From contig MQRK01227105.1 in assembly GCA_001938485.1 (NCBI GenBank), positions 10,077-63,034 of the forward strand: DNA of 52,958 bases, written 5' to 3'. Under the pieces are notes generated by a model. That model made no database searches. It worked only from the letters and a program-made list of their open reading frames with translations, and was not told the origin of the DNA. Both the position numbers and the translations under genes were made by a program. The first letter of the stretch is position 1; each line of letters starts with the position of its first letter. Of the stretch, positions 1,502 to 50,372 are shown piece after piece. Source of the stretch: Girardia tigrina (taxonomy: Eukaryota).

Positions 1502-4500
1502 TGTCACGACCCATTTGTTCGTAGCAATTTTGAACGCTCAGAGCCCCCAGTGACTATTAAGGGTCAGTCACAACCCAGTCTTAATTTATTCTCCAACTAT
1601 GACTATATATATTACTTATACATTATAGGGTCGGACGCCTCTTCTCGCTCGACATCTGCCTGGCAGTGCCGAGTCTGAAGGGCCTGCGGGTTCGGATAAA
1701 GATGGGATGGGCTATGGGCCCTCCACCTAGCGGATTGTCGTTCGGGGATGATTTTTCTTTTCTAACTATAATTCGATGCCTTAACTTCTATGATGAATAA
1801 CTCGCAATTATCAGTATCGGAACTAAATTATCAGAATCGTCACAACAGTCTTATAAAAGTCGGAAATAAGTCAAAACAAATTTGTCAGTGACGTTACCAA
1901 ATCATTACTACTCGAGATAGTAGCGCACTATGAAACCGAAAATTAGAATAGCTTTCGCCCTCACATGAATTCAACTTATAGATCAGTAAATAACATGGGT
2001 TAAAATTCCTACAACGATCCGATAGTTACTTTATTTGTCAACTCGATTCCTAAAATACTCAGCAAGCAAAATTTTATTAAATAAATTCGGATTACGTTCA
2101 TTTATCTATCAAGATTGTTTACCTCTAATTTAGTTATGGATCTATAATAAATTCATTTTCCCCTTAACTCGTAAAATATTTTAAATCGTAAGTGCGATCG
2201 TTCATAGTTTTTATTGTTTATCGACACCATCAAGTGAACGGTCAACAGCAGCTTTAAATAAATCTATCCTACAATTATTCGATGGACGCGCTTATAAATC
2301 GCTCAACCCGTAAATTTTCTATAGCTCGGTTTTACTATACACTTATATTGTCGAATTACTCGAGAAAATCAGACTTTAATAAGATTCTCACCTCCTATTT
2401 TATTTTACCGGTTTCTTTTAAAAACAATCCCACAAGGCAAACCACTTAAGATAGATTTATTACTAATATTCATTTAATTCAACCCTTAAAATTAGTCGTC
2501 AAATTGGATTAACTAATTACCTAAATTCGTATCTCGTTCGGTTGCAAAATTCACCTAAAATATATTTGCTGACGAGATAAATTAAATCAACTCTCATTTT
2601 AGATCGTAATACGCTAGAAAATTCAAATATTGGATCGTAATTTCTTAAAATTCGGTTAAGCTAAAATGTTGCTCATTAATATAATTACTAACACATAAAT
2701 TCGACCAACATAAGTTAATTAGATATATACATTTTAAAACTAAAATAACTAAAATACAATTATGAATCTTTTATCGGCGCAATAAAATTCGATATCATTC
2801 GTTTAAAACTCGGTTGCTGCAGTTATTTGTTTTAAATACTCAACTTATATCACAGCTTTAGGCACATTTTCAATTCTCAAGGAAATTTTGATCCGAAGAC
2901 TTGTTAACTCATTTTTTAAGAAAATAACCGCATAAATAGAATAGGTAATTCCTTTAGTGAATTTTATGACATGAAATTTATTGGTAACTTCTTATTAACC
3001 TTCTAATTTTAAGACATAAACGAAAACCATGTTCCTAATCACTACATAAATCGCTTAACATTCCTAACCCACTTTACTAATTATCAACGAAACTTCACAT
3101 ATTAACTATTTATAGGTCAGAAAAATAAAAACGATAAAAGGCAATTAACAAATTAACTAATATTATGGGGAAAAACTATATTTAAGGTTCAAATATTTCC
3201 CAAGTGACTCCACCACTATTGTCTTAAAAATCAGATCTATCGATAGTTAATCACTAAATTAAAAAAAATAGAAAAGAATTTATCAACAGATTATTATCGC
3301 AATCATAATCAACACTAAATTAGCAGTAACAATTAGTAAAATTTCTTTAAAATAACAATGTCATGCCTAGAATAAGAATTAGATTTCCGGTACTAACGTC
3401 AACACATGTCTATAAAAATTGAAGTTACTGATAACAACAAAATCATATTTATAAGAACTGAAATTAATAGAAAAACTTCAAAGAAAAAGTGAAAACTCTA
3501 CGTCAAATTCACGCCAAAATATATTTATTTAAGTAGTATAAGTGACTCTCGATCGAACTCAAATTCGAGTTTGGGTTGGAGCTCGCGGTTACCTCGCTCG
3601 GTATGGGCGAACCTGCGAACCTACGAAGTCGAGGAAGGATTCAATGCAGCGCCCCCCAAGAAACGCTTCCATCGAAATCGAAAATACGTTGATAATTACC
3701 GGTACTGGGTGATCTTCTATGCGCTCTATCGGAGTACTCAAACGCATGATACCTCGGGGCATCCCACTGAGGAACGGTGACGGCGGCGACGGGGCTGAAC
3801 CTACTCTGGTACGGAAGGGGAGTGCTTATTACATAAACGGCTCATTAAAACTTCTTAAGTAACTATGATAATAAAATAATAAAAAGATAAATAAAATAAA
3901 TCGTAATAATGTTAACCAAAACGTTTATTAATCGATAAAGACTAGTAGTCGCAATTAACTGGCATAATAAATCAAAATTTACAATTAAATCGAGATTCCG
4001 GTTGAATGTTTCGGTCGTCAGATACTTTTCTCGTCGGTTATTACTCGGATCAATGTGTTCGGTATCGCTCGTCCTGTATTTCTCCTAGTCGGGGTTTCTC
4101 TCTTTCTTCGTAGTTGTCTTCGCGTCGAGTCCTGGTCACACGTTCCGTATATTTCTTTAACTTGGTCGAAGTTGTGAGATTTTGTAAAATCGTGAGGAAT
4201 TGTGCAAGTAAATTTACAAAAGTCGTAAAAAAAATTGTGCAAATAATTGTGAGTGAGTATCGTATTTATAACACTCATCATTTCATTTGTCGGGGTGTCT
4301 TTTCCTCGTGGCCGTTTCTGGTTGGCCAGGTTGGTTATTTTCGAACCCTGATTTGTCGAGCTGGTTTGTTGTTAGGCCGTGTGTCTGACTCCAGACAGTG
4401 ATTGTTGGTCACAAGGCTCCTTTGTCACCGATGACTATTCACCGTGTAACGCTGTTCTTTATTTGTGAGCCTGACTCACCGTAAGTTTTATTTACTATTC

Positions 4501-5036
4501 TTTGTTCATTAATTGGCCTTTGTCTTTCTTTAATTAATTTACGTATCTTTTCAGGGGTGTAACTCTTCAGGGGAATGCGTCAGAACTTTGCGGATGGCCT
4601 TCAAGGATTCCTCATCCTCGGGGCTACAAGTGGAGGGTCGGTTGACCCCTTAACAACAACGGGTCGTCCAAGAGGTGATTTAATTCATTTTGACCTCTTT
4701 TTAATTAATTATTTTCTTTTTTAATCGATTAACTTCTTTCTCCGCGTTTCCGGGGTTCGGCAGTTCAAATTCGGCGACCTACTATGTTATTTGGTTCTTC
4801 TCATCGGGTATGCTTTCAATTCACTTGTTTGATTTTCCTTATCTATTGTTTTTAGTTGTGATACAATGCTGCCCCCTGACATGGATGATCAAAGACGATC
4901 CTGGGACCCACCTTTTTTATTTATAACGATTAAAATAAATGTATTATTCTCATGGGTCTTCCTTTTTATATTCCTTTTCTTAATGTTTATAATTATATGT
5001 ATTTTATATTATGTATTTGATTTCTCGACCGCAACA
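1502..5036 (+). mobile_element. Long (3535 bp) solo-LTR-like element, copy 1
   Basis: TGTCACGAC...CCGCAACA termini; 4-bp TSD AATG (1498-1501, 5037-5040); colinear homology with 33824-36730; no long ORF. Confidence 0.85.
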
Positions 5037-5129
5037 AATGCATAAATATGTTAGAAGATATAATATAAACACAGAAAAAGTTCTGTCTTATTAAATAATT
5101 TCTTGATAATTTTGTTGCTTTCGTAGGAA

Positions 5130-17668: not shown

Positions 17669-19199
17669 TAATTGGACATATTTTTGTTGCTTTCATTTGC
17701 TGCCACAGCCTCGATTTTCTCCTGCAAAACGACCAGCCTTTGGTGATGGCTTAGTGTCAGGAGGCCTGGATGGTTTGTTATTGCTGTCCTGACTTCCCGC
17801 TTCATTTTGCAAAAAACGCCTCAATTGGATTGAGGAATGGAGAATATGGCGGCAAATTGACCATTTCATGATTGGAGATAGTGTTGAAATGGATTCTGGC
17901 ATTATCCTGGATTAAATAATGCGGTGTCCCTGGCAGAATGCTCGATAAGTCATTTATGAACGATTGATATTTGGCATGATCCACACTGCCACAGTATAAT
18001 TTGAATAGCAGGATACTCTTCCTGTCTATTGTCATAATGAGGGACATATTTTTTTCCCCTGTTTGTTGGGATGACAATATTCACCGGAATACCTCTCTTT
18101 GAACGACCGAATTGGCGGTTGGTCCATAGATTAAATCCGATTTCGTCAATGTAAACACATTGACTCATTCGCCAATCTTCCTTCATAAATCGGCAGGCAT
18201 ATTGAAATCGGAGGTCCTTCACTCGATCTGAATTTCGTTCTTGNNNNNNNNNNNNNNNNNNNNNNNNNNNNNNNNNNNNNNNNNNNNNNNNNNATGGTTA
18301 TTAATTTACCGGTGAGGAAGCGGGAAATTGTAGATTCCGATATATTGATTTCCCTGTTCTCCTCAATATACCTTTTCATCTCTCCCAACGTCGATTGCGG
18401 TTTCGCCTCCACATACCGAATGATCGTCTCGCCGATTTCGTCGGTAATAATGGTTTTTTTGTGGCCTCCATGTTTACCGACCGATAGGAGACCGCATTTT
18501 TGATATTTATATATGATGTTCTTGGCAGCTGATTGGGATATATCGAGCTGCCTTGTCAGAATCAAATAGTCCTCTGACATATTGTAGGCTCTGACGAGTC
18601 TTTCTTTGTCGATGAGACTTATTCTTGAATAATTTTATCATTTTAATTTGAAATTGTAAATAAAAATTACGATTTGCGAGTTTTCTTTATCCTACAAGGT
18701 TGTGTTTTTTGGCTGTCCTCGGTATCTATGTTATGATTATTTAATAAAATATCATGATTGACAATAAAGTACCTTATCTCAGTGTCATCGGCACTGCTAA
18801 CGGGCGATAAATTGTAATTTTCCAGCATTTTTGAAATTTATTTTTTTTACTCTTAACGTCTGGATTCACTCTTAAACGCTGGCAAATCAGGTGTGTATGA
18901 GGTGTGTTTTTGTCTCTGTATGTATGTATTGTATGTGTGTTTTGTGTATATGAAGGGTAGAACATACTTTTCTATAATTTAAACTATTCTTAAATGTTGT
19001 GAGTTAATTTTATCATCTGTTTAAACGTATTTTATGATTTTTAATTTTATTTATTTTTAGATTTCCAATTTTCATTTGGATTTTTCAATCAAAGGATGTT
19101 AAGTCACTGTTAATTGCAAGTGACTGTAATAAGAAATATAAGAATATACAGTATAAGAATTATAAAATAAGAATAAATACAACTGCTAAAAATAAATTT

Positions 19200-21675: not shown

Positions 21676-22700
21676 CCACTTAAAGCACCTATTATTTTAG
21701 AATTTGGTGGTAAAAAATTATGATATTTTTTATTATTGTTTTATGTATAAAAAATCATAAAAATAAGGTGAAAAAAATCAAAACTGTATTTTTTGTATAG
21801 TTTAGGGGCCATTGCATAATTACGCAACGCTCGAGGGTGGGTAGGTGGGGTCCTTGAAAACGTTATAAAACGTTACGTGGGTGGGTGGGTGGTGGGTCAC
21901 TGAACGTTACGTAACGCTTTTTTAAAAATTAAGGCACGACTGTAGTGTCTTAAGACAAAATTATTTAAGACAAGTTACAAGAAATACAATTTCAAAATTT
22001 AAATAACGCAAATTTCATTTTAATTCTGTCAATTTAATGCATTTTAAAACTTTTGGCTATTTTTGGCGTTATGTAATTATGCAATGCCCCCTTACTTTTT
22101 ATTACAAATTTACCTATAAATTATTACATTTCTGGTAAATTAAAGTAATTTACAAATAGATGAAAAACGTAGCCTAATAATCTTTTCTTGTGTGATATAT
22201 CTCAAAACAAGGGATATAGCACAATCCCACATTGCAATCTTTGTAGTAAGCGTACGTTTCTCTTCTAATTTTATTTCCTTTAGCATCTCGCTTATTGCAA
22301 CAAATGACACAACAGCGGGTTGGTGTCGCTTTATTTCCCGTCGCGGAATGTGTGCTGGAAAATGCCGTTCCGTGAGCCTTAAAGGACTTCGCTCATAAGA
22401 TGGTCGACCTGTCTTTTCGAAAATTTTCTGATACTTTTCAATCAGTTCTAAAACTAAACACATCCAAAAGTATAAATTGTTCTTTGTGCCGCTATGTTTT
22501 TGGTATAAAACAAAGGTGTTTCTAATGCAGAGATCTAATAAGTGGTGAAAAATGTTTTTGTAATATTTTTGCCTCTTTCTGGTAATAGGGTAGTCATGGA
22601 TATGTTGATCTAATCGGTCAACACCACCCATTGTATCGTTGTAATTGACTACCAGTTTCGGTTTACGAATCGCACTGCCGTCTTTATGTGTTTTATTTGT
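21676..22700 (-). mobile_element. piggyBac 3' half (transposase C-terminus to terminus)
   Basis: KPKLVVNYNDTMGGVDRLDQ, RLTERHFP; frameshifted Cys-rich tail RCCVICC..DCNVGLCYIPCFEIYHT; terminus TTAA|CCACTTAAAGCACC at 21676. Confidence 0.85.
21805..22091. mobile_element. PIF/Harbinger-type MITE (287 bp)
   Basis: TIRs GGGG(C/G)CATTGCATAATTAC..AACGC; TTA target duplication on both sides. Confidence 0.9.
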
Positions 22701-23186
22701 TACTTCAGTCAGTGAGAGTGTATTTTGTATGCTCAATAGTCTCTGGATATCCATCGGCATTGCACGAAAGAATGCTGTCCGCAAAATATTGTCATCGTCG
22801 CCAGTGATGCTCAAACTGCGGTAATTACGCTGCAGGGTTCTAAGAAATTCTGAGGGGCGACGGTCGCCAAGATTACTTGAGAACAGTTCATCAAAATAAA
22901 CCGAAACTGGAACTTTGCGGCTGGGTATAATCGCATTTTTGAGGTCGGAAAACGGTGTTGTGGAATCCGTGTCAATGAAATTCTGGAATTCCGTCAATTT
23001 CTGAGGAGGCAGATTTGCTGTGAGATGTAAAAACTTCGTTTGCTCTGTAGAAATGCCGGAGATCTTGAATATGGAATCGATTTGTTTAAACCACATCTCG
23101 ATGTTGTCGAAGATTGGAGGGATTTTCGGGCTCACGTGGTTGCATTCGAGCGAACCGCTCCTGGCACCATTATAATCTTCTAGCAT
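22140..23186 (-). CDS. Chimeric ORF: Gypsy-type Gag (capsid-like) fused in frame to a piggyBac transposase C-terminus
   Basis: First ~160 aa: PKIPPIF..EMWFKQIDSIFKISGI..TKF..LGDRRPSEFLR..ILRTAFFRAMP (Gag); remainder piggyBac motifs; 348 codons open. Confidence 0.7.
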   Translation of the reverse strand: MLEDYNGARSGSLECNHVSPKIPPIFDNIEMWFKQIDSIFKISGISTEQTKFLHLTANLPPQKLTEFQNFIDTDSTTPFSDLKNAIIPSRKVPVSVYFDELFSSNLGDRRPSEFLRTLQRNYRSLSITGDDDNILRTAFFRAMPMDIQRLLSIQNTLSLTEVTNKTHKDGSAIRKPKLVVNYNDTMGGVDRLDQHIHDYPITRKRQKYYKNIFHHLLDLCIRNTFVLYQKHSGTKNNLYFWMCLVLELIEKYQKIFEKTGRPSYERSPLRLTERHFPAHIPRREIKRHQPAVVSFVAISEMLKEIKLEEKRTLTTKIAMWDCAISLVLRYITQEKIIRLRFSSICKLL

Positions 23187-23897
23187 TATTTAAATACTGA
23201 ATAATTTAAATTGATAAAAGAAAAGATTGGTTATTTGAAAAGTTTATTAATAACAAAATCTATAGATTTAAACAATCGATAAAAAATCATTATTTTTAAT
23301 TCAACAAAAATTGAATTAAAAATAATTTATTGATTAAGTAAAGTTGTCACTTTACAAACAACTAAACATAATGATGGTATAAAAAATTTAATAAAACACA
23401 AACAACAAACCACAAAAATCTTAACGGAGGAAGACCCATATACTCAAGAAATGAATGAACATACATAAATAATAAATTCGGAATATGATCCTAGTTCAAT
23501 ACCTCAATATCCGGATGAAAAAGACGGAGGTTATAAGATACAAAAAAAATACATTAAGTGAAATACAAGAAAATCAAATTAAATCATTTTCATTTAACAG
23601 AGGAAATAGCAGTAATTATTGAAAATAAAATACAAGGAAGGCCAACATCAATGAAATTCTCCTTTTTAATAGACATTATTTAAACAAATAATTATTCATA
23701 TTTTTCATATTAAATATTTCATTTAATAAATAAATTTAACATGTAAGACTCCTCCCAGATTCTTCGTCATAAAAATCTGTATCTAAATACAGATATATTT
23801 ATATTGAGCTAAGTACTTTCAAAATATGTTATAAAATTGGAAATATCTACATCAATACTTTTTCTTATTTCAAATACTATGGACCATGCGTCTTGAA

Positions 23898-24890: not shown

Positions 24891-25378
24891 CATCATCAGA
24901 AACCTTGCGTTTTTAATTCGTTTACCGCAATGTCATTTTTCAAATTCCCGATTTCATCTTCCAATTTTGAGGATTTTAACGCCACATCTTTTATTTTTTT
25001 AAAGAGAGTTGAGATAGAAGCCGAGTTCTTGCGACACTCGGTGCAGATTGGCGTTCGGTTCTGCGACACCAGTAAAGGCTGATGTAACATCGTAACATGC
25101 GCTGCAATTAATTATTTATTTCTGAGACACCAGTAAAGGCTGAACTAACATCGTAACATGCGCTGCCACTGTGTTTACAGGGAGTTGTGGTATGTCCTGT
25201 TCCAAATTCATGTCTTCTACTTTCAATTTTCCACTTTCACCTTTCTGAAGTGAACTCTGAGCGACCTCTTTATAGCTCGATCTCGTCTGTTGCTCCGCCT
25301 CGAAAAGTAATATTAAATTAATATATAAATATATATTTATATTTATTTCTTTCGCACCACATTTCCCAGCCTCCTGAA

Positions 25379-25927
25379 GCGAAAGGGAATCAGTTTTACA
25401 TTCCTGAACTTGAATACGGAAATGTGGTTATTTCGGTAACACAAGCGAACCAGAGACGTCATCCAGTGTTTCGTGAAGAGTTCTCTTTTCTTTGTATACA
25501 TACCATGTCCCTAGAATCAGGTTATCTGGAGAAAGGGACGTGAAATGTCAAAAGCACCGCGGTTCTTGTGGTGTCCGAAGCGCCCCTGGTGGCCCTTGAA
25601 AATCTGAGGGAGCAGTTATAAATTTCGTTTCAAGCCGTACCGATATCCGCAGCAGGTCTCCAAGGTGAGCAGTCTATAGTCTTAGAACAATGTAGGTAAG
25701 GGAAGTCGGCAAATTAGATCCGTACCTTCGGTAAAAGGATTGGCTCTAGAGACCGGGTATGATGGGCTTAATCAAGAAGTTGATTGAATTGGAATTGGGC
25801 TGTTTTGATTCTGTTTCTTGGTAACTTGAGATGGAGTTGAAATGGAACTTTTTCGACTTGATTGATGGGCGGGTTAGGCGGATTCATGGTCGTCATTGTA
25901 CAATTATCGGTCAACCTAGAACTGGCA
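25379..25927 (+). rRNA. Isolated 28S (LSU) rRNA fragment, D7-D8 region (pseudogene)
   Basis: CGAAAGGGAATC, GAAGAGTTCTCTTTTCTT, ATATCCGCAGCAGGTCTCCAAGGTGA, GTAGGTAAGGGAAGTCGGCAAATTAGATCCGTA, AGGATTGGCTCTA, AGAACTGG; no other rDNA nearby. Confidence 0.93.
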
Positions 25928-26705
25928 TACAATTTAAAAGTTCAAAATAATTTTTGCGGTAAATCCTTCACGTTTGTTATTTCTTTTTCAAACAAATTTC
26001 TAATCAACATAAAATCACGCTTCCGTTAATCGGTTACTGAGACCGAAATAATACTCATGAATTTATTTATCTTCTAACAAATAATGCTCAAACAAATTCA
26101 TTTCATCTCTTATATTCCAACCTTAAAAATACCGACGCAATTAATTTCATTTTTAATCTTCCATAAAAAATCCTGTGCCAAATAAGTTTCATCTAATTTT
26201 ATTTATTTGTCTTCTAACTAAATATCCTATACCAAAATAAACATAGAATTTTATCAAAGATAAAAACTTATCACTTATTTAATATTAATTAACTTTTTTT
26301 AATAATTTCCACTTTTGTCACAATGCTTTTAGTTACTGTACCCTCTAAAATACAGATTGAGATAAATCGTCGAAATTAATTGTCAATGAAAACAGAATTT
26401 GAAAAAAGATGGAAATTTTTTATTAAAAACAAATAAACGCCATTTAAAAATATATTTCGCGATAATTAGGGCAAATTTTTGTTGCCCTAAAAAACGGAAT
26501 AGTTGCTTTTTCTTTTTGGAAAAGTTGCTTTTATTTGATTATCACTTCAAATGATGCTTTTTGTCTGTATTTTATTCCAAAAATCGTGCATCCAGTGCTA
26601 TAGACATTCATTCCCATTGTAATCACTCGCCCTACCACTACATCAGAAAAGTCCGCAGAAATTGGTAACTCAGAATCGATATTAATTCCAAAAAAAATCA
26701 ATCAA

Positions 26706-27065
26706 TTAAACTGTATTGTAGTACATGATCAAGTACTTTTTAATGTTGTCATCGCGGAATGGACAGTCTTTGCACAAAAGCTTATTCAACATTGAAAAAC
26801 TTCTTTCTACTGACACAGAGGTAGCCTGGCAGCGTTGAAGACACAAGTATTGACTGGAAGAAATATCGTCGCGGGCTAGTGTCGCAATAGCAATGAAATC
26901 TGAATTCTTTTCTAAGCGCTTCCCAATATACTGCTTGATGCTGCAGGAGTCTTCGGCGAAGTCAAGCGACATTAAATCGTTATATGCAGTGATTATGTCG
27001 TATTTTTGCTATTCAGATTTTTCAACAAGAGGAATCAGACATTCATATTCTTTCTTGATTGCCAG
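26706..27065 (-). mobile_element. hAT-family (CGGBP1-like) transposase C-terminal fragment
   Basis: LQRCQATSVSVERSFSMLNKLL..F..DNIKKY dimerisation-region motif. Confidence 0.75.
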
Positions 27066-27109
27066 TATATAACTAATTTCCTAAAATGAATCATAATTAA
27101 AGATTCTAA

Positions 27110-28130
27110 TATTCCGGGAAAAACTAAGTTCTAAAAAACTAAGTATCTAAAAATTGTCCGGGAAATGTCCTAAAATTTCTGTTCTCAGTTTATCCTCCAA
27201 ATGTTCGAAGATGAAACCATAGTATTGATTGATATCCTAAATAAAATTTGGCAATAAACAAATAAAATTTATTTTCAAACATACGTTAGGGGGCCGCTGC
27301 CGTGCTCTTTGATGGCATCTTTTCCAGATGCCTTCTGCTAGCTTTTCTGGCGGAAATTCTCTACTTTGAAAGTTTTTATTCGTTTCTCTAAAAAATTTTT
27401 TTTGAAATTGTCCTTCCTGCAATATTTAATTTTAAATATTATCAATATTGACTTATTTATACCAATTGCGACGGAATTAATGCCGTAAAATCATCCATAA
27501 AATCTTCGTGTTTTGGTTTAATATTTTCCATCTTAATTAATTGAATTAAATTTTATTAAATCAAATTATATGCAAATGAAATTAAATAAAAATAAAATCA
27601 AACATTAAAATGCATGTTTCTCAAACTAAAAACCTAACTCTACAATCCTTATGTAGCCATGTATGTTAGCTCACTGCAATTCGATATTAGTAGTGCAACC
27701 GGAAATATAGGGGTTCCCGTTCAAATGAATAAGTGTTGCAATTTCAAATCAATAAAAAAATACTCATGACACATGGAACTTAAAAATAATTATTGTTTTT
27801 TTATTTGTATCTTAATAATGATCTAATTAAATCTGCAAATTAAATTTATTATTTTCGTATAGTTATTTATTGATTATGGATTGACTTACAGATTGTTCAT
27901 TTCGTAAAAGGATATAGAATATAGAAAATAGAAAAAAAATTAAAAATGCTAACTCGTTTAACGAATAATGACACTTACCGGAAAACATGCAGTAAAAAAA
28001 TATCGATTTCATTCACTATTTCAAAAAGTGAATTTATTCAGATTGTACGTTAATTTACGATTTGATAAAGATAACATTTTTAAATCACTGATATTAAAAT
28101 TATTTGAAATACGAGTTTGCGTGATTTTTT
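27110..28130. repeat. ~1-kb direct duplication, copy 1 (copy 2 at ~28710-29705, offset 1575)
   Basis: Near-identical from ~27215 onward; divergent in the first ~100 bp. Confidence 0.92.
27147..27531 (-). CDS. Predicted 3-exon orphan gene, 96 aa (exons 27531-27463, 27416-27285, 27236-27147)
   Basis: Two phase-0 GT-AG introns of 46 and 48 nt join MENIKPKHEDFMDDFTALIPSQL / EGQF...RPPN / DINQYYGFIFEHLEDKLRTEILGHFPDNF*. Confidence 0.65.
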
Positions 28131-28189
28131 ACATTAAAAAAAGAATATATTTACGAAATTTAAATTCTTAATTTAAAATTCTTAAATTA

Positions 28190-28521
28190 GTTGAGAGTGC
28201 TGTTTGAACATTGATTTTCGCTTCACATGATCTTATCAACAATGCTTCACATGACTCTCTCTCCCAATAATTTAATCATTTATGCGTTTTTTATGTTCAG
28301 CAATATTACTCTTTCCCCCTTTTTGACTGTCTTCTTGGACTCTTGCAGAGATGACGGGCAGTCTCTCCGATGTATGTGACATTGCACCCATTACATGTGT
28401 ATTGATAAACAATGTCCGAACACAATCCTAAAGGAGAATGTGATTTATTGTAAAACATATTCTCAACTTTAAATGATTGAGAAATAATTTTTAAATGTAA
28501 AATATTATTTGTTGATTTCAA
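28190..28521 (-). mobile_element. Penelope-like GIY-YIG endonuclease remnant
   Basis: IVYQYTCNGCNVTYIGETARHL ... EALLIRSCEAKINVQ. Confidence 0.8.
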
Positions 28522-28724
28522 GATTGAATTCGTGATTTTTTTTACGGATATTCATAATAAATTTTATATTCATAAAATTTTTATATAATAAAATTATATA
28601 TATCATAAACATTTTATATCATAAAAAACAAGACATTTTTAGAAAATTTTATTTTTCTAAATTTTTTCCCGGATATAACTAATTTATTAATCCCTAATTA
28701 AAGAATCTAGTTATCCGGGAAAAA

Positions 28725-29106
28725 CTAAGTTCCCGGGAAATATCCTAAAATTTCGACTTTCAGTTTAGCCTCCAAATGTCTGAAGACTACACCATAGTAT
28801 CGATTGATATCCTAAATAAAATTTGGCAATAAACAAATAAAATTTATTTTCAAACATACGTTAGGGGGCCGCTGCCGTGCTCTTTGATGGCATCTTTTCC
28901 AGATGCCTTCTGCTAGCTTTTCTGGCGGAAATTCTCTACTTTGAAAGTTTTTATTCGTTTCTCTAAAAAATTTTTTTTGAAATTGTCCTTCCTGCAATAT
29001 TTAATTTTAAATATTATCAATATTGACTTATTTATACCAATTGCGACGGAATTAATGCCGTAAAATCATCCATAAAATCTTCGTGTTTTGGTTTAATATT
29101 TTCCAT
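28725..29106 (-). CDS. Second copy of the 3-exon orphan gene, 95 aa (exons 29106-29038, 28991-28860, 28811-28725)
   Basis: Exons 1-2 and introns match copy 1; exon 3 DINRYYGVVFRHLEAKLKVEILGYFPGT*. Confidence 0.65.
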
Positions 29107-33823: not shown

Positions 33824-36730
33824 TGTTGCGGTCGAGAAATCAAATAAATGTATAGTATAAAATACATATAGTTGTAAATAAGAAGAAAGAGGATATAAAA
33901 AAGAAAGACCCATGAGACTAATACATTTATTTGGGGATCATTATTAACACAAAAGGTGGGTCCCAGGATCGTCTTTGATCATCCATGTCGGAGAGGCAAC
34001 ATTATAATACAACTAAAAACAATAGATTAGGAAATTCAAACAAGTGAAATAAAAACATACCGGATGAGAAGAACCAAATAATATAGTATATATCTGGAAT
34101 TGAACTGTCGAACCCCGAAAACGCTGAGAAAGGAGTTAATTGCTTTAAAAAGAAAACAATTAATTAAAGGGATCAAAATTAATTAAATCACCTTTTGGAC
34201 GACCCATTGTGCGTAGAAGGCCAGCCGACCCTCCACGCGTAGCCCTCGGCGAGGCCGATCCTTGAGCGCCGCCCGTAGAATCGCAGTACCTTATTGGGAA
34301 AAGATATAACCCTGCAAAGAATCAAAAATTAATAGACAAATAACAAAGACTAATTAAAAAATTACTGTGACTCAGGCCGCAATCTAAAAATAAATCCATA
34401 TGACCTGAATTGACCGCATACAGACTTCGACAGCGATGACGTTGAATGGCACACGATCTCCAAAACCTATAATAAAAATAAAATTTTAGAATTTCAAAAA
34501 TTTATTCAAAGGCACACTCACTTGGCCATCCAGCCAGCAACGACAAAAATCTAGACGGCCGGCTGATTGGTTGAAGCAAGAATCCAGGGTGTCCTTCCAA
34601 ACCTATAAATACAAGAAACATATAATCATTATTGCACAAAAAATTTATCGCAAAATTTCTATCGCACAAATTCTACAAACGCTAATTTGAAGCACAGTTG
34701 AACACTAATCAGAAGAGTGATAATTACGAATCGAAGGAAACAAAGTCCTATAAAGCAAAGAGGAACTCCGCCAGAGACCATATTTCCGAGGAGAATAGAA
34801 AGAGATACGACACAGTAACCGACAAGAAGAATCGATCGACCGAAACATTCCAACCGATCTCGAGCCGTAATAAAAATGTAATTTAAGTGGAGTTATTACT
34901 TATTTTTTTTTATATTTTTATATTTATATTTATATATGTATTGAAATTAATCAGCTTATTCGTTTATTTATTTATTTTGTTATTCAATAATTAATTAGAA
35001 AGAATGCAAATTACCTCTAAGTTTCTAAGCAGTAGCACCGTCGTCCCGCCGTCGTCCCTCGTCAGTTATGTCGAGGGTCGAACCCTCGCTAAGTGCGGTG
35101 TTAGAGGACGCGAGAGACCCAATCATCCTCATCATAGTCAGCGTAAGATCAATAAAAGAGTCTGAATTTTATAGCAGTCGCCGCATCGACTCGTTCCTTG
35201 ACGAGGTGGGGCCGCCAGTGCGCTCCTATCGGACGCGATAGTCCGAAGGGACACCGATTCGCGTCGAGCGAGAAGATCCATCATAATTTATTTTCTTGTT
35301 GCGATAAACATGCCCAATTGATATATTTAAACAAAATAAACTTTTACTATTTCGATAATTCTAAATTAATGATTTCCGTTGCAAATTAATTTTGTTGATT
35401 CCGAGAATTAATTCATAAATTTTATACGTTCTAAATTAGAAAAAAAATTTCATTTAAAGTTAATAATTATTTCTAAGAATTAAGTCGAGGCGAGATCAAT
35501 TTAGAAATAAACTAAATTTGATCACGAATTTTAGTTAATAAATGTTAGCGATCTATAACTAATAAACGAGTCTTAACGATTTTAATGATTTACGATTTAA
35601 TATATAAATGATATTTGATCGAATTTATGATTTAAAATATTTTCTAACGAGTTACGAATCAGTGTGAAAATGAATTTGATTTATATCGATAATTAAGTTA
35701 AAGTTAAATTTTTTAGATAGATAAATGAACGCAATCCGAATTTATTTAACGAAATTTTACTTGATGAATATTTTAAGAATTGAGTTAGCAGATGAAGTAA
35801 ATATCGGATCGCTGTAGAGATTTTAATCAGCATTATTTATGGAGTTATAAGTTAAATTTATTTGCAGGCGAAAGCTACTCTAACTTTCAATTTTATATTA
35901 CGCTGCTACTTCGAATGGTAATAATTTTATTACGATACCGACAAATTTTGTTTTGAATTATTTCCGACTTTTATATTTTAGTAAGACTATTATGATGATT
36001 CCGATAATTTAGTTCTAATACTGATAATTATAAGTCATTCACCTTCCGAAGTGGATAATTTAAGTAGACTTAGGCATCGCGCCGCTAAATAGTCGAGTAA
36101 CGACGTAGTGTTGATTATACGATGGCTAAAACGAAGTCTGACGAATGACTCTCGAGACGAATAGCTAAGCTGAGAAAACATTGATTTCCATCTGATGTTG
36201 ATACTTGTCCTTGCAACGCCAGTAACGATTCGAGATGATAAATCTTGAAGAAGGGCTATATAGGACATAACAATGCCGCAAGTTTAATCCTACATCACAG
36301 TGCAGTAAGTTTACAAATATACGTAACAGTGCCTCAAGTTTCCGAAACATAGACACACAGCAGTATAGCGAGTTTCATGTTATACATAACAATACCGTAA
36401 GCCTCATGTTACACAAAGACAGAGTACAAATCATCCCCGAGCGACACTCCGCTAGGTGGGGGGCCCGTAGCCCATTCCATCTTTATCCGAACCCACAGGC
36501 CCTTCAGACTCGGCACTGTCAGGCAGATGTCGAGCGAGAAGAGGCGTCCGACCCATAAATGAATAAGTTTTAAAGTGGTTTGTATAAGTTGAGAGATAGA
36601 GATAAGTAGTTTAATAATTAAGGGAATGAGTTATAAAATGTTAAAAACCGAAACTGGGTTGTGACTAACCTTTAATAGTCACTGGGGGCTCTGAGCAATC
36701 AAAACTGTCGTAAACAATAGGGTCGTGACA
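33824..36730 (-). mobile_element. Long (2907 bp) solo-LTR-like element, copy 2
   Basis: Reverse complement has TGTCACGAC...CCGCAACA termini; TSD AATT; colinear with 1502-5036. Confidence 0.85.
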
Positions 36731-36991
36731 AATTGTTTAAACGGAAAACAGCTCATTTTTTCACAAAGAAAATTTTGATAACAATTTTTGAAATCCTAAT
36801 TATTAATTATTATTAGCAATTAATTTCAGTTTCGGAGAAAATTGTAATTCAAACCATTTTCCTTAGTCATTAGTTGGGATCGTAATATCTCGATTTAAAT
36901 CGAGAGTAAGTATACATGAGTCGACGTCTACAACTCTAGAAATTTATGAAATCATATATTAATTATGAAATTACAACTTATACTTACTTAT

Positions 36992-41378: not shown

Positions 41379-43244
41379 TATGGTGATCACAATTTTTGTT
41401 TTCAGGTTTATTTGATTACTCTAGTTTTGACTCCTTTTTCTCCGTTAATCGATTCGATAATCAGAATTTTCGTTTTTTGTTTTTGTTAAGTTAGTTCTGA
41501 CCGAGAACTTTATATAACTGCTCAAATCATAATTTATGCAAATTAAATCTTCGAACGAGACTCTGTCTAGACGATTCTCAAATTCTTGACCTTTTTGAAT
41601 CAATTAGCTATTTTCTTGATCTTTTAAATTAATTAGCTATTTTCTTGTTAGCTTTTCAATATATAATGTAGGGTCATCATCTTACTGAAAATCTTATCCT
41701 TTTATACTTTTCTTTTACATTTTATTTTTCTTTATTTACTTCTTAAAATAGTTTGATTATTTTTTTCTTATAAATATTTCTTTATCTAATCTTATTTGTT
41801 TACTTTTCTGGCTATTCTTAATTTAATTATTTATATATAAATTATATTTAATTTGATAAAAAGATAAATAAAATCTTATTTTATCTTATTAATTAAAACA
41901 AAGTCTATTTTTTACTACTTTTATTATTATTCTTAATAATTACCTCAACATTCGCAATAAAATTTATGTCCCCATAAATGATAAAAAGAAAACATACGTA
42001 AGAAGGAATAGTGCATACATAATATCAAGAGAAGAAAGAATGACAACATAAATACATACAAATTAAATAAACCAATACATATAAAAATCAAAAAAAATCA
42101 AAAATCAAGTATATTTTTTTACTACTTTTATAATTATTTTTAATAATTACTTCAACAATATTATAAACAAATACGATGATTTTAACAATCAATAAGTAAT
42201 GATAAAGGATTTAGATTTGATCTTATATTCAGTTTTTTAATAGGTGTGGCCTATTCTTTATTGAACTGTTGCATCTATGGGTTAGTATGGAAGTTATCCT
42301 CCGCAACCCGACTTAGACTCAACAAAGAAGATTTCATATCTTCAAATTCTCAAAGTTGAGGATTGATATTTTATAGGGAAGTCAATCCTAACTCAGTCAA
42401 ATAAGTCCGGATTAAAGTCCTTAGTCCTTGAAAATAATATTTAAAATTCAATAATTCAAAATAAAACAACAAGACAATGTCTTAATAATTATTTTGAAAT
42501 ATAATAATCTACAATTAATTTAATCTTTTTACAAAATTATTTATATAATTAACTTAATATGTGATGAGGAACTTAGATGACGCAACAAATCACCGTTTGG
42601 TGGTCAAGTTTTATATTAATATATAAATATTATTATTTTAATATAATCCGTAATAGAATTGACAAAATTGATAATTAAAATTTGAAAATTAAAGATAAAT
42701 TTTATTATAACTAAACGGAATTAATCCTTACTATATGTTACGGCACAAATACGATTTGGAGAAAACTCCCCTCCATGCTCAACGCCCCGCTCGCACGGAA
42801 ACCTTGTCAAAGTTTGTGCGGATAGTCAAACTCGACTATCCCCGTTAGTTGTAAATAGGCTTCGCGTGCGTATGGGACAAGAGGCATGAAGTGGGGATCC
42901 GCAACCCGTGATCGTCTTCAGAAGGCCCTGGGGAAACCTTTAAAAAAATTTTTTTTAATTAAAAATCTTGATTTAAAACATAAATTACCCGTAATCACTG
43001 GCATCAACAAATAGCTGCATGATCAACGGCAGTAATTGATTCCAGTAATTGACCCAGGATGTCGCATAATTATTATGATCGAAATCATTTCCTCTCTGCC
43101 CCCTCGCATTCTGACGCTGAGCGACAGACAGTTGTGTCTGCGAGTAATTGTTTGATTGTTTCCATCCTGTCGTTGGGGGATCGCATACAGGATACTCGAA
43201 GATGACGGGTAACATGTGAACGTATATATACGCAAAACATTTAA

Positions 43245-43477
43245 CCCTTAAATGCATGATTTTTTATTTTTTCATGAAATATTTTTTTCTGTTTATATTA
43301 TTTTGACGTTTATATCAATATTGGCGGGAGTTTTGACATGTTTTGTTATAATCGTCATAGACAAAAAATGTACAAAGATAATTTATTTACAAAGGACAGC
43401 AATTATTTACACAAACTGGATGCATGGCACTTTCAAACGTTTGTTGTATCATTTTTGATACAAGATGCATTCAAGGG
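43245..43477. mobile_element. piggyBac MITE (233 bp)
   Basis: TTAA|CCCTTAAATGCAT ... ATGCATTCAAGGG|TTAA. Confidence 0.9.
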
Positions 43478-45092
43478 TTAATAATACTTTGCCACAAATC
43501 TATCGCACAATTTTTGAACACAATTTGCGCATATTTGTGGCGAATTTAGAACATCATTTTAAAACGTAAATAACCAATTTTATACTATCAACCGAAACAT
43601 TTACTATTTGGAACAGAATCATTTTATCGCGGAATCATAATTGTGAATTTCAATCGAGGTATAACTTGGTTTGATACTTTTGTTTATCCCTATTTACTGT
43701 ATTAATATGTAATTGATAAAAATATAAATTAATTGGATTGATAGTCTCCACTTTATATGTTTGATTTATTTATTTGTTTTATTGCCATTTATACTAAATT
43801 TCAGTAAAATTTATTTTGATTGAGGAAGAAGTCAAAGATTGCAATAACAGTCATAGCACTATGAGGGCAAACTTGGTAAGACCCGACCAATATGGTAATA
43901 AGCGTAGGATAACGAAGTCAACCTTCAGAATCTTTTCGGAATCGGGGGGNGGGGTTAACGAGGAGTATTCCAGGGATGCGCTGTAAAGCTAGAGAATGAA
44001 TTGCTCAGCACCCGTGTAAATAGAGTGTAATCCAAAATTAATTGATTCTTTTGTTTATTGTATAAATTCGAGTTTATTAATTTCGAGGAACTGTATAGTT
44101 TATAATCTGGGCTACCTTCAACGGATTTTAATTTTTCAACAGCTTGCATTACACTTAGCAGTCTAACTCAGGATGTTTTAATAACCCATCTTTTAAATTC
44201 AATTTATGATTTGGTACATCTGTCATCTAGTCTTACTAATTTATTTCTATTATGTTTTCTATCTTAATTTAGCTTTCATAACTCTATATTTTATTCATAA
44301 TGTTTTAGTAATAATCTTATCTTAATTTTCTTAATCCGGATTTAGAAAACACCTTTATTAATTGTAACATTATAATCATTTATAGTAACCTCTTCACAGG
44401 ATTAATGTTATGAATAGGGGTTATGCTATTCATAAGCGATAATTAACAATCAAACGCAAAAGATAGATAATAATTTGTCGTAGTCACAAGTCGAAATAAT
44501 ATGACACCAGAAGATTGTAAATGGAAATTAACATTATGATAATTATTTATGGATTATTAGTTTATGATTTTTAATGATGAAGTTACTTCATATTTATTTA
44601 GTAAATAATACAAACCATCCATGTCTCACATTTATAACTCTTTTTTCTTTTGTGATTTAATTTAGTAATGAGTAGTGTATAATTCCATATCTTTGAGTCC
44701 CTGCCTTATCCTTAAAGATAACTGAAGAAAATGAAGATAATATATAGAACGAAAATCGAACCGACAAAATCGAAAGTTAAATTGAATCAATTGAAATATT
44801 CACAAATTGCAGGAATCGATACAAATGAAAATATGATAATTATGACAATCAATGGACAATTTTCAAGTATGTCCAGTAAATGAGGTAGTTAATTAATGAT
44901 GTCGATAGATTAATGAAGAGGTTGTTCTGTTAGAAATTCGTCAGTGTTCGAAGAGGAAGTGTGATTATAACCGCTGAGGAAAGCATTTTTTCGTCCAGGA
45001 GTTCTTTTCGTTTGCAGAAGATTTTAAACATCCGTAAGTGTTGCGAGTAAAGGTCATGTCGTGCTTATGATAATCGATAAATAAATAAATGC

Positions 45093-45214
45093 TGGGTCTG
45101 GAGCGTTTTCGCGTCCGGATATGTCGGGACGGGATATGGGCCACCCAACTAGCTCAACATCGATCGGAGTATTGTGTTTGAGTAACAAAATAGAGAAATG
45201 TTTATTAGTGTATG
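45093..45214 (+). repeat. Local copy of 46031-46152 with an internal 29-bp inversion, flanked by a 26-bp direct repeat
   Basis: Direct read; flanking TATGATAATCGATAAATAAATAAATG at 45066 and 45211. Confidence 0.92.
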
Positions 45215-45906
45215 ATAATCGATAAATAAATAAATGAAATAATAGATAAACAAATAAAAAGCTGATTTAATAGCGTGGTTTCGCCAAAAATTTCAATTTA
45301 TTTTACGTACAAAAGATTTTAATAAAAATTTCTAAGCGAACGTTATAATTGAATTAATTTAAAATTAGATTATATCCATGAGATTTAAATAACTGTATGA
45401 TTTGTAATGGGATTGGCGTAGTGTAGAGGTAAATAGCAAAAATCAAGCAGAATATTTAGGTAAAGTCAACTAAAGATAAATGATTTTATGAAGTAAATAA
45501 ATAAATTAATAATCATAAGGAAAAGAGCGAGGAACCTTTTGGAGATGACGTAGGCTGACCGCAGCATGCAAGGGGCACGCGGACAGACCGACGTTTATCT
45601 CTTTGGGGCTCTCTTCGTTTCATATATTTTAAAATGATAACGTGAAAATACAATCCATAACGATAGCATGAAATGACATCTACCCCTCAGCAGCTGAGAC
45701 CACCAGTCGGGTCATACTCGGTACTGGTTCGAGCCCGAAGCACACACAACTTGTTGATGTGCGCGGAGGAGACGCGTCTGTTCCTCATGGGTGTAATATG
45801 AATATACAGGAAGGTAAGGAACATATTGGAGTTGCCGTTGAACTCAAAAAAAACGGATGGGGGCTCTGAATCCACGAAAATGTTGTCGAGAGAAGTGAAC
45901 ACGACA

Positions 45907-48127
45907 TATAATACTCAACTGGAACACTGCAGAGAAAATCTCATTAAATTTTATCTCATTTTTATATTTGTGTCCATTCTCAGAAGGTGGTCTGACATGC
46001 CTCTCTCGCCCATCATGTACAATGTAGTGGTGGGTCTGGAGCGTTTTCGCGTCCGGATATGTCGGGACGGGATATGGGCCACCCAACTAGCTCAACATCG
46101 ATCGGAGTATTGTGTTTAATAAACATTTCTCTATTTTGTTACTCAGTGTATGCATCACTCATGTCGGTGTTGTAACTGCTTGCACTTAAACGTGGAATTT
46201 CGATTGTTTATTGAGGTGGAAACAATATGGGAACGCGGTTTATGTACTGTAAATGATAAAATATTTATTATTATTCACAAACTGTATTAAGTTGATTATC
46301 AAGTTTTTATTATAATAATCGAGATTCTGTTTTATTCATTAAATCCAAGACTTAAACCAATTATCATAGTATAAATTAGCTTGGATGAATTATCATTTAT
46401 TACTGTAGCTACACTCATAATATATCCAACCGAATATACGAAAACGATACTTATTAAAAATAAAAGCATTATGTTCACTAAATTTATCTATAAACATTAT
46501 TATATTTATTCGAAGTAAAAAAATATTATATATTCTCTACAATTCTTTACACTCTATCCAACTGATTCATCAAGCCATCATCATCATTTGCATATCATTT
46601 CTAACAAGCGGAGTAATTATTTAATCAGTGGAGCTGTTTCTACCAATGAAATTATCGGATGACTATGATTTGTTCTATCAATTATGCACTGCTGTAGATA
46701 ATCGATTTCTCCGCTCACGGAATGTTTGTTTCACGTATGAAGATTCTGACGAAACCGAATTCATCTCTTGTTTGCTTACGATTTTCAAGAACAACCGTAA
46801 TTCCAGAGTTTTTTTTCTCACCAACGACTTTTATTTTTTACTGGATTCTCTTTAAAAGATATAAAGTGATTATTTCAATAACTCTGGGAGCCAGAGGGGA
46901 ACGACGAGACGACTGGAGTGACGGTTGTTAGTGGGCTAAAATAATCTCAGATATTAGTTAATCAGTCAAATATAACAAATTGAGATAATTTAAACAGAGA
47001 TACTAATATCAATGAGGAAATTATTTAATAAATAACGAAAAGTAATATTGTTTAATACATTTATTAAAAGAATAAATAATATGAATACATAAGAAAAACT
47101 CTACATTTTGACATTTATCAATGGCTAATCAGAGGAAAGTTTTTCGTTCGGAGCCTTCTTCGGTGTGGTAAATTCCATTGTTATCCGATAGAATTTTACT
47201 AGGTCGAACAACTCTATTTCGATTCTAGTAATTTGTCGTTAAAGGCTTTTGCGCTTGAGTTTCGCGGTCAATTGCGTAAAATAATCTTTTTAATTTGTCC
47301 AAAAGTTGGTTGGTTCTACTTCGTCTCAAAATGTTGATTGTATTTATAAATCTCGATATTAACCATGCTCCGTTGTTGGTTTATGATTCGTTGTTGAACC
47401 TGGTTGCCTAATATTAATCGTTCACCATTTGTCATGCCATTCTCTCTGTGTGGTGTGCTGCGATATTGTCATGTCGCGTGAACAGTCATGGATTGTCAGT
47501 TGATCTATGAATCATGATGATTATTATTCAGAGGCTGATTGTTAAATTTAACCTTAGCGTTGACTCACTATAAGTTTTTAATTAACTTCTTATATATTTA
47601 ATTATTTTTTGTTATATTTCAAGGGGCTATATCTGGATTCGGGAAGGTTGGATTTCAAAACAAGTAAAAAAGTATAGATATTCCTCATTTGCATCGTTAC
47701 GGACGATGTCGGTTGATCGATTTTGACCAAAGGAAAACTCGGTATGCTGTTAGCATTGTTCTGCCGTATGCTCAATTAATTTTTAATTGTAGCGGAGGAT
47801 GAACGTGAAATTCCGATCTCAATGAAGGGTAAGGGGTGACGCTTCCTCAGCTGACTTACATCCTTACTGGTCAAATGATCTTTTGTGTTACTTAGTGTGA
47901 GGATAATGAGGCGATTATCGATTGAGAATGTCGATGGATTTTTGAATTGACCAGATGCCGAATAAAACAAAAAAGCATAAAATTAAAAAACCGAAAAACT
48001 GCTGATCGATTGGAAATATTTTCTTGCGAACTGAAATTCGATAACCCTTTATTCGATAATCAATGACTTGATTTTACGATAATTTGCATCATTTGAAGTA
48101 TTTATCTCGATCAGTGCGACGGTAATA
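45907..48127 (+). mobile_element. Part of a fourth related long LTR-like element (boundaries uncertain)
   Basis: GAGGGGAACGACGAGACGAC motif (~46893) and TGACTCACT-ATAAGTTTT...TTTCAAG-GGG (47561-47626) parallel 3768-3790 and 4472-4557 of copy 1; no TSD confirmed. Confidence 0.5.
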
Positions 48128-50372
48128 ATAATATTGAATTGAAATATTGAATTGAAATAATGAATTGAAATTTCAACAAAAAATCTTTATTTACAACATT
48201 GGATTTTTTTATGTTCTATACATTTAAACAAAATCCTTGTATAAAAAATATCGAATTAGCAAAATATCAATTAATAATTCTGTAAATAATACAAATCGAT
48301 TTTTAACACTTAAATATTTCAAATATTTCATTATAAATTTTTCCATTGAATAATACACATAATTGTTGTGGTACACAACACTTAGATTCTCAAATAAATG
48401 TATTGTTTTTTTATTTCTTTTGGGAATTGAATATCGAGTTATTATAACATATGAACCACAACAATTGCATGTTGTGCGACATTAGTTACACATAGATCAA
48501 ATTTTTATGCGCTGAATGTGTCAACTCACTTTTTCAAAATTTCTTCCAAATAACCTATTATTTCTTCATTCTCCGTTCGTTATGCTTTTTCTGTTTTTGA
48601 TTTACTATTTCTTTTCTCTATATTTTGTCTTGAATATTTTAAAATCTTATTCCTTTTTTTAAAAGCTTCGATATCCGTTAACTATTATATGTAACATATT
48701 CATATCTTCCTGTGCATTTTCTATACCCCCTTCTTATCATAATGTAAGCATTTTTAAAGAATAATTTAGGAATAGGAGTGCACTTAGGGAAAAAAATATT
48801 TACAAGAAGTTCAAAACCTAATTCAATTAACATTAATTCGTAATCAAAAATCTAACATTCACATCTATTTCCAGATATAGCTAATATTCAAAACTAAAAT
48901 ATCCAGAAGCTCACTGAAGTTAAATCTTTATAGCATTTTTATCCCCATTAAATCTTTATCCTGTACTTCCATATGACCATAAACCTGATATAGAAATTTT
49001 TGTTTTGTTTTGGTTAATAAACGTTTCTTTTAGATTTTGAATATTTTCGTGTTTTATCTCGCTGATACAAAGCGGTTCCAAGTTATAATCGATTAAATTC
49101 ATAATACAAAAATGAATCAGTGTTTTTATTGTTACATTTCATCATCGGCTCATTTGGTAAATTTGAGTCAACAATTTACTGCTGCATTTACGTTTGAAAA
49201 ACATTTAAAATTCGACTTTTCTAGCAATGATTTTTTCACAAGAATTTTATTTGATTCAAAATCCTTTCAAAAAAAATTCGCTAAGTCACTTTCAAGAAAA
49301 ACTAAACTTCACTTAATGTTCGATTCACAAAATAAGAACGATTTAAATTAAATTCTTACCCCAAAATTTCATTCATAAAAATATTCAAGTCACGTACAAC
49401 AATGTTCCAAATTTCTAAATTAATTATTATTTTATTTTTATTGATTTAAACTAAAACAATTTTTTTAAATCAAATTTTTAAAGATTAAAAATTCTTAATT
49501 GTCTTTTTTTAGAAAAAGATTTTCTTCCGATTTATCAAATTCTGTCGATTTCTTTTCTTTTTCAAAAAATTGCCAAAATTAATTTATCAGATTGAAATTA
49601 AAAGATTCAATTATTATATTTGCAATATCTTCCGATTTTGATTGATAAAACAAACTTTCTGATTCTCGAACAGTAATCTTTATATTTGAAATTTTTCACG
49701 TTTTTAATAATGAGCAAAGAAATTCTTTTTTTGTATAGGAAAAAATTATTTTAGTCTTTCTAGTCCAAATAAAAACGTGGTTTAAATTTTTTTACATGAT
49801 TTATTTTTATATTTTTTATTTGTATATTTATTTTATTTATTTGTATGATATTTACATATCATACAAGACTTAAACTAGAAAAACTGAATTAGACAACTTT
49901 CATCGAACAGGAATATTGTTTTTTGAGAAAGAAGCGAACGACCTGAATACATTTTGTGAAAAAAATGGAAAATTGACAGAATTTTGTGATAAAAAGAGAG
50001 TAATCATATAGACAGAGCTATCAAGAAGACCAAATGTTAGTTAGACTATGAAGATGTTTGAAAGTGTTAAAATAATACAATTGGGCAGTCAATTCGTTAC
50101 AGACTTCCTTACGGCCTAGAAGCGTGAACATTATACAAAAACATGCCAAGTAAATCTATTTTCATTGGTGTTTTTATATTTAAGATATTTAACAATCTCG
50201 TAAATGTGTTTACATAGGGAAAATTCCTGAAAATTCTCTTTTTAAACCCATCTTATTGAATATTTCTTATTGTTTAATTACTTGTAGAAACATCCAAAAA
50301 AGCGAAGCATCGAGTCGAATTTAGGTCTAATAAGATTTATGCATTATATTATGTATAAAAAGATACAACTTT

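Follow-up and report, generated by a model that had tools for sequence, protein, structure and literature searches.

Burro-type solo long terminal repeats in Girardia tigrina and a small open reading frame under purifying selection within them

Burro elements rank with the largest known retrotransposons and form a main obstacle to planarian genome assembly. The accessible portion of one account describes Burro/GYPSM1, with relatives known from three dugesiid planarians, as having an interior of up to 25 kb and a total length of more than 30 kb, a ubiquitin- or SUMO-like domain, an env in frame between gag and the protease (PR), and a dUTPase between the protease and the reverse transcriptase (RT) (PMC6431247). 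According to the accessible portion of another, BURRO RNA rises when SMEDWI-2 is lost and is under PIWI control (PMC8532177). As far as these texts extend, the former holds nothing on the anatomy of the long terminal repeats (LTRs), the primer tRNA, solo LTRs, an LTR-borne protein or antisense splicing (PMC6431247), and the parts available of PMC11410931 and PMC13238120 add nothing further on LTRs. Our literature search, which did not cover Grohme 2018 or the Repbase entry GYPSM1, found no paper on planarian solo LTRs and no Burro LTR protein. Here we analyze a 52,958-nucleotide stretch of DNA from Girardia tigrina (hereafter the window; C227105:10077-63034, contig MQRK01227105.1, in the 1.43-Gb genome assembly GCA_001938485.1 of 255,254 contigs), which contains three complete solo LTRs (E1, E2 and E3) and a truncated fourth (E4), and in which E1 and E2 each hold a small open reading frame (ORF), referred to below as the micro-ORF.

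Protein genes within LTRs are known from vertebrate retroviruses, where HIV nef and foamy virus bel lie in U3, and HTLV-1 HBZ is made from a spliced antisense RNA of the LTR. The partly available account of MMTV describes a protein gene inside the LTR (Sag/Naf) and an extra LTR promoter, again in a vertebrate retrovirus with the ORF in U3 (PMC9412291), whereas the micro-ORF is placed after the likely TATA box, on the R/U5 side, is only 57-63 amino acids (aa) long and has no sequence link to Sag/Naf or to the other proteins named above. Plant Ogre elements resemble the elements described here in that they, too, are of the Gypsy type, have LTRs several kb long (1.9-6.5 kb) and contain extra ORFs, but belong to a plant lineage, have extra ORFs that are internal and, in the portion available, have no env described (PMC6431247). 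The GAG-ENV-POL errantiviruses of Platyhelminthes, Nematoda and Bryozoa likewise have a Ty3/Gypsy RT and a fusion glycoprotein between gag and pol; the available main text of that account does not contain the words Burro, Schmidtea or planari and, as far as it extends, leaves multi-kb gene-bearing LTRs unmentioned (PMC13524379).

An earlier note, made from the letters of the window alone, had described E1, E2 and E3 as one family of three non-coding elements with TG..CA ends, probably giant solo LTRs. The coordinates and ends it gave were borne out, as all three elements start with TGT, end with ACA and are flanked by an exact 4-bp target site duplication (TSD), and the lack of a long ORF was confirmed, the only stop-to-stop frames touching the elements being of 117 aa and 105 aa. 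The motif AATGTTTCGG is found once each in E1, E2 and E3 (3 exact matches) and nowhere else in the window. Copies sharing these termini, for which the note had proposed a search, are abundant: with four end queries, the first-look candidates in the genome numbered 3203, 417, 3346 and 930, with 40 scored for each, and the closest other copies of the E1 ends among those scored are 97-98% identical, indicating that E1, E2 and E3 are high-copy LTRs. The single family was not upheld. E1 and E2 are related, having their terminal 11 and 13 bases in common and aligning in blocks at 75-92%, while E3 matches E1 solely through a stretch of E4 origin and E2 only weakly (E 6e-4); E3 is a separate lineage from E1/E2, and the three do not form a single DNA family.

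Table 1. Positions, in window coordinates, of the four elements and of the features within them
Feature	Position	Strand	Remarks
E1 solo LTR	1502..5036	-	3535 bp; Burro-type Gypsy; LTR 5' end at 5036
E1 TSD	1498-1501 and 5037-5040		AATG; exact 4 bp
E1 LTR 3' end (U5 end)	1502..1760	-	GC-rich, most conserved block; adjoins the primer-binding site in full elements
E1 micro-ORF	3589..3762	-	57 aa; sense; middle GC island; purifying selection
(C/T)CG-repeat motif	3779..3792	-	just upstream of the micro-ORF ATG; common to most subfamilies
AATGTTTCGG motif (CCGAAACATT in sense)	4005..4014	-	~250 nt upstream of the micro-ORF; some subfamilies only
TATAAATA box	4263..4270	-	~770 nt from the LTR 5' end
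Three short GT-AG introns in U3	4481-4554, 4675-4725, 4808-4855	+	antisense to the element
E2 solo LTR	33824..36730	+	2907 bp; E1 sister subfamily, termini alike; TSD AATT
E2 micro-ORF	35068..35241	+	57 aa; 42% identical to that of E1; DNA there unaligned by blastn
E3 solo LTR	42736..45906	+	second lineage; TSD TATA
TTAA-flanked insertion in E3	43241..43481		241 bp; terminal inverted repeats
E3 middle-island ORF	43861..43986	+	41 aa; E1/E2 micro-ORF slot, no sequence homology
Templated insertion in E3	45092..45210		~120 bp copied from E4 46028-46145, partly inverted; flanked by 26-bp direct repeats
E4 truncated LTR	45945..48463	-	third, E1-related lineage; ~80 bp of U5 end missing
Nested TG..CA element in E4	47896..48380		485 bp; unrelated; 5-bp TSD CTTAG

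Related copies elsewhere in the genome identify these elements as LTRs. Forty loci were fetched through searches with the E1 ends (20 of 40 and 20 of 39 other matches, picked for contig room); 24 hold both LTR ends and 16 only one, and a 4-bp TSD flanks 22 of the 24 both-end loci; of the other two, L001 adjoins a purine tract, as a 3' LTR on its polypurine tract (PPT), and L027 is interrupted by a gap. Overall, 1 of 32 TSDs extends to 5 bp. Two one-end loci (L008 and L012) have a common flank that proved to be the primer-binding site (PBS). The exact junction of LTR end and PBS is present 28 times in the genome (control, 0), and, of 12 junctions fetched, 7 have a PBS that pairs with the tRNA-Pro(TGG) of this genome over 18-19 nt and one has a PBS that does so over 17 nt; in the other four the pairing covers only 13-14 nt, a pairing of 13 nt being forced by the search pattern in all of them. 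A hairpin and purine tract stand directly before the LTR at 11 places (control, 0). In addition, three internally deleted elements have both LTR ends inside one TSD, namely C212335 (TSD GAAG, 95 bp at 96.8%), C212405 (AAAT, 349 bp at 98.9%) and C249123 (TATT, PPT present), and the identities of the first two pairs point to recent activity. Because of the positions of the PBS and PPT, with which the strand of gag-pol agrees, the LTR sense is the minus strand for E1 and the plus strand for E2 and E3, the reverse of the orientations in the earlier note. Solo LTRs with intact TSDs are the product of LTR-LTR recombination, and most gap-free copies are 2.4-3.6 kb long. Strand, tRNA-Pro primer, PPT, 4-bp TSD and this length range are now fixed for the LTRs in this genome. 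The tRNA-Pro(TGG) genes themselves are paired 646-647 bp apart in 3 of 4 loci (L100-L103), which suggests tandem arrays.

The interior between such LTRs is that of a Ty3/Gypsy element. The PBS is followed by ~6 kb with several ORFs of 150-160 aa and then by a gag region with Pfam matches, on the PBS strand, to a Ty3 capsid (E 1.4e-6), a CCHC domain (1.1e-5) and a ubiquitin-like domain (1e-4). In one frame of 1097 aa, a Monjiviricetes-type fusion glycoprotein (2.6e-82) is joined to the protease and dUTPase, and downstream of the dUTPase lie RT (4.9e-37), RNase H (RH), integrase (IN), Pfam-less ORFs, the PPT and the 3' LTR; the protease, dUTPase and ubiquitin-like matches are mostly below Pfam cut-offs. 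The order PR-RT-RH-IN, with a Gypsy-type capsid and RT, is the one that defines Ty3/Gypsy. C200761 spans the PBS to RT and C239447 spans env to the PPT, and the coordinates of these overlapping contigs give an estimated interior of ~24.8 kb, or ~31 kb with two LTRs of ~3.0-3.6 kb. Every interior copy seen is interrupted by stops, frameshifts or gaps, the single polyprotein of ~5000 aa that characterizes Burro is not discernible in them, and the env-PR frame has no sequence match in the PDB. The PBS, PPT, interior domains and paired ends in one TSD are what the earlier note had suggested looking for, and they support its proposal of solo LTRs from a giant Burro-like Gypsy lineage. As far as the accessible text goes, Burro1-4/GYPSM1 have the same layout, with an interior of ~25 kb, a total of ~31 kb, a CCHC Gag, a ubiquitin/SUMO-like domain, the order gag-env-protease-dUTPase-RT, accessory ORFs before gag and thousands of copies (PMC6431247).

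E3 appears to have a parent of similar construction. E3-type ends adjoin the same tRNA-Pro PBS as the E1 type in 3 of 16 matches, the E3-type LTRs in L108 and L109 have the same hairpin-PPT, and in tblastx the 8.7 kb that follow the E3-type PBS are homologous to the gag region of the E1 family (E as low as 1e-23). E3-type TSDs match in L086, L114 and L122, differ by one base in L081 and L113, and do not match in L112.

Some further features of the interior were also observed. Between the PBS and gag, the 150-160-aa sense ORFs are conserved and Pfam-less (L049:3689-9278, L052:700-6168, L056:171-1177), and a conserved antisense frame (L049:5629-6153) is present, with a CG-repeat motif before an antisense ATG; this interval appears to be an accessory gene array. 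A second interval of ~4.5 kb, between the integrase and the PPT, has long Pfam-less sense ORFs (L066:5230-9590, L069:369-2393, L073:359-3737). Ubiquitin-like domains, with 2210 first-look candidates genome-wide, are often inside longer frames (L159-L164), and the pieces before some of them are presumably HSP90-like.

Contrary to the earlier description of the elements as non-coding, the 57-aa ORFs of E1 and E2 are homologous and evolve as coding sequence. A profile search recovered 46 ATG ORFs among 4377 small ORFs, mostly 57-63 aa long and located ~1.2-1.4 kb from the LTR 5' end. Distant homologues, at 38-60% identity, were fetched at 20 loci, 10 of which have both LTR ends and a 4-bp TSD. 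In a codon model of the 46 copies, omega (dN/dS) is 0.47 (2dlnL 74 versus omega=1), and the tree lengths at the three codon positions are 5.7, 4.5 and 10.2. Four of the five other frames have an omega of at least 1 and the mirror frame ~0.6, and these five frames have 1.2-3.0 stops per copy (1.8 in the mirror frame). Searching the same genome gave 150 scored matches, of which 9 contain an internal stop, although ranking by score biases this set to intact copies; loci picked regardless of the ORF contain 40 occurrences, and of these 28 are intact, 11 are broken or partial and 1 is interrupted by a gap. When ORFs in 75 LTR pieces were clustered, the micro-ORF cluster was both the largest and the most divergent, with 37 members, all in sense, down to 26% identity; across subfamilies, the ORF is conserved at 26-95% identity. 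The conserved core comprises a predicted hydrophobic strand, P-I-I-V/I-D/N-V/I-x-S, and a short helix. Sequence liable to be masked as non-coding repeat hence holds a selected microprotein ORF in at least 150 copies.

The predicted microprotein is apparently undescribed and LTR-borne, the element class itself being known. Pfam gave no family at E<=1 for four of five microprotein queries and one match at E 0.29, a word-index search with the microprotein returned no candidate, and the best score in the ESM Atlas was 0.77, below 0.8 and not a lead. A hidden Markov model (HMM) search of 1.84 billion representatives found one true homologue, P0001 (60 aa); a second match was discarded as a repeat-rich chance match. 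These sparse matches would suit a different explanation, that the LTRs are ordinary solo LTRs in which the middle GC island is kept for a function of its DNA or RNA (as a promoter, packaging or dimer signal) with the ORF as a by-product, as would an omega no lower than 0.47 and the missing ORF in E3 and E4. We nevertheless regard this as quite unlikely, given that third positions evolve at roughly double the rate of the other two codon positions, that the selection signal is specific to one frame, and that the length of 57-63 aa, the start and the core P-I-I-x-x-x-S-x-x-E-x-F outlast the alignability of the DNA. Remote look-alikes of the microprotein, 57-71 aa long (E 4e-4 to 1e-2), were seen at L001:402-572, L074:1511-1723 and L095:6071-6286, and possibly come from further LTR lineages.

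We hold it very probable that E1 to E3 are Burro-type Ty3/Gypsy solo LTRs and that the E1/E2 type carries a selected ORF of 57-63 codons, likely for an accessory protein. Several observations weigh against one or the other part of this reading. By layout, judged from the description of Burro, the elements belong with it, but BIR, BCL2, MATH and ankyrin domains, which the accessible text reports for Burro (PMC6431247), were not detected with Pfam in the 28 interior ORFs scanned, these copies being broken and Pfam being liable to miss remote domains. No intact full-length element was found on a single contig; the figure of 25 kb for the interior is estimated by combining a pair of contigs that overlap, one of which has a 1.4-kb gap, and the E3-type interior was followed into the gag region only. 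For the micro-ORF, the 46 ORFs in the codon model had been picked as open frames, an omega of this size is no more than moderate, and recombination makes the tree less clear-cut. E3 and E4 have no detectable micro-ORF homologue. The AlphaFold model (strands at 12-21, helices at 31-50) has a pLDDT of 60 and a pTM of 0.30, a low confidence too weak for a fold search. Most TATA-bearing copies have 1-5 upstream ATGs between the TATA box and the micro-ORF, and the RNA contigs that cover the micro-ORF island cannot show strand.

The arrangement of motifs suggests how such an LTR may be expressed. The TATAAATA box is likely the main LTR promoter, with a U3 of ~0.8 kb, and transcription would start ~0.8 kb inside the LTR, behind this TATA box. 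The (C/T)CG-repeat motif recurs before the antisense ATG in the element interior, which suggests that it may act as an internal promoter or as part of a leader. Candidate ORFs that begin across the TATA box (MVSVIN..) vary in length from 28 to 143 aa and were rejected as echoes of the DNA motif. The U5-end block folds below shuffles (z -3.1), and Rfam at gathering thresholds found nothing within the elements.

The introns that the earlier note had placed in a 3' part of the elements are real, but they lie on the antisense strand of U3, the layout having been read on the wrong strand. In an alignment of 28 5' LTR parts, which include five divergent or off-target matches, introns 1-3 are present in 27, 28 and 26 rows, with GT kept in 22, 25 and 22 and AG in 26, 24 and 23, respectively; in E1, the acceptor of the intron at 4675-4725 reads AT. 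Intron 3 is skipped exactly in contigs X1, X3 and X5 of one sample, the RNA status of which is guessed, and intron 1 in X1, at a joint flagged 'between: not known'. X2, the sole run on record as RNA, showed no intron joint, and no sense-strand (CT..AC) joint is listed, which is uninformative. The share of the words present in the sequencing runs does not exceed 0.18, and all of these are contigs, from which start sites, strand or level cannot be read. One could suppose that the spliced antisense RNA, rather than the sense micro-ORF, is the main cargo of the LTR and encodes a small membrane protein, as two introns are removed in RNA-like contigs and, with the introns out, one frame is near-open over 116 codons, with hydrophobic end stretches and 0.6 stops per copy versus 7.7 and 4.2 in the other frames. 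This frame was rejected as coding, and we consider the proposal very unlikely: omega is 1.27, not different from 1 (7 of 28 rows being dropped as off-target, divergent or deleted), no start codon is shared, E1, E2 and L044 have in-frame stops, only 10 of 104 exon indels keep the frame, and the splicing is that of one sample of guessed RNA status. The U3 antisense RNA is likely spliced and non-coding.

That the elements are stand-alone mobile non-coding elements borrowing an integrase, as the earlier note had offered as an alternative, would fit the very numerous copies and the 22 of 24 both-end copies that are solo, but is extremely improbable given that the same ends sit on a PBS or PPT elsewhere and bracket deleted interiors in one TSD, that solo copies have no PBS or PPT for reverse transcription, that gapped contigs would under-count full elements, and that the LTRs have coding content.

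Taking E1, E2 and E3 as Burro-type solo LTRs, each is likely what remained of a full element after its two LTRs had recombined. Identity along E1 is a patchwork, because of which we infer that LTR segments are exchanged between co-packaged subfamilies by template switching. At L048:3340-3560, an E1-type LTR has a different 5'-terminal stretch of ~200 bp, an exchange of modules even at the terminus. The LTR would drive expression of the micro-ORF, perhaps at a CG-rich start specific to it, and since expression would come from the LTR itself, solo copies could still make the microprotein. We predict that the core of the microprotein docks onto a protein of the host or of the element; its hydrophobic strand resembles SUMO-interacting motifs and the PxIxIT-type motifs for docking to calcineurin, a resemblance only. 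A search for host SUMO returned ubiquitin-type proteins, not SUMO, at the six best PF11976 loci read. It is possible, though we stop short of calling it probable, that the microprotein regulates expression or silencing of the element by such docking. As BURRO RNA rises on SMEDWI-2 loss, an anti-silencing role is a reasonable guess, though no more than a guess.

A broader proposal, which we consider unlikely, is that Burro LTRs are self-contained cassettes of a promoter, a selected docking microprotein of 57-63 aa and a spliced antisense RNA, with the many solo LTRs that remain once the element has deleted itself continuing to express the regulator. If true, this regulator might, for example, be a decoy that counters piRNA/SUMO-dependent repression in the progeny of planarian stem cells. 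Should solo LTRs indeed give rise to the microprotein by translation, they would supply a regulator of the transposon that persists after the element is gone. If the microprotein is set aside, what is left is the ordinary annotation of a known class.

The remaining features concern E3, E4 and their surroundings. The length of E3 is inflated by two insertions. The 241-bp TTAA-flanked insertion, absent from the related copies L098, L109 and L110, is presumably a piggyBac-like miniature inverted-repeat transposable element, and the templated insertion of ~120 bp (window 45066-45236), with its source ~0.9 kb away, looks like a template switch during repair. Other E3-type LTRs have ORFs of 34-41 aa in the micro-ORF slot. 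The earlier note had placed a fourth relative at 45907-~48127; a relative is indeed present there, E4, but it has a different span (Table 1), is truncated, is opposite to E3 in orientation and is without AATGTTTCGG. A relative of E4 in L124 is 3705 bp long including an N gap, with TSD AATA and E1-like ends. An insertion of E3 into E4 is unsupported, as the missing end of E4 was not found on the far side of E3. At L125:1262-1342 and L126:4308-4388, an E3-type LTR end likewise adjoins E4-type sequence, with the junction placed elsewhere than in the window; it appears that the two lineages have come to be nested or adjacent more than once. L110 matches window 41921-44328, comprising the left flank and 5' part of E3, at 91-92% without the TTAA insertion; judged from the sequence, the pair would be a very divergent haplotype or a duplicated segment.

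Elsewhere in the window, fragments of eukaryotic LSU rRNA (Rfam RF02543) are present at 25245-25982, and local direct duplications of ~1.07 kb (94%) and 0.38 kb (89%) at 27059-29709 and 36951-38007, respectively. Relics of other mobile elements, at 22140-23189, 18146-18634, 29724-30200 and 51522-51995, include a DUF7041 and a piggyBac-type DDE domain in one frame, Tc1/mariner pieces and an RT fragment.

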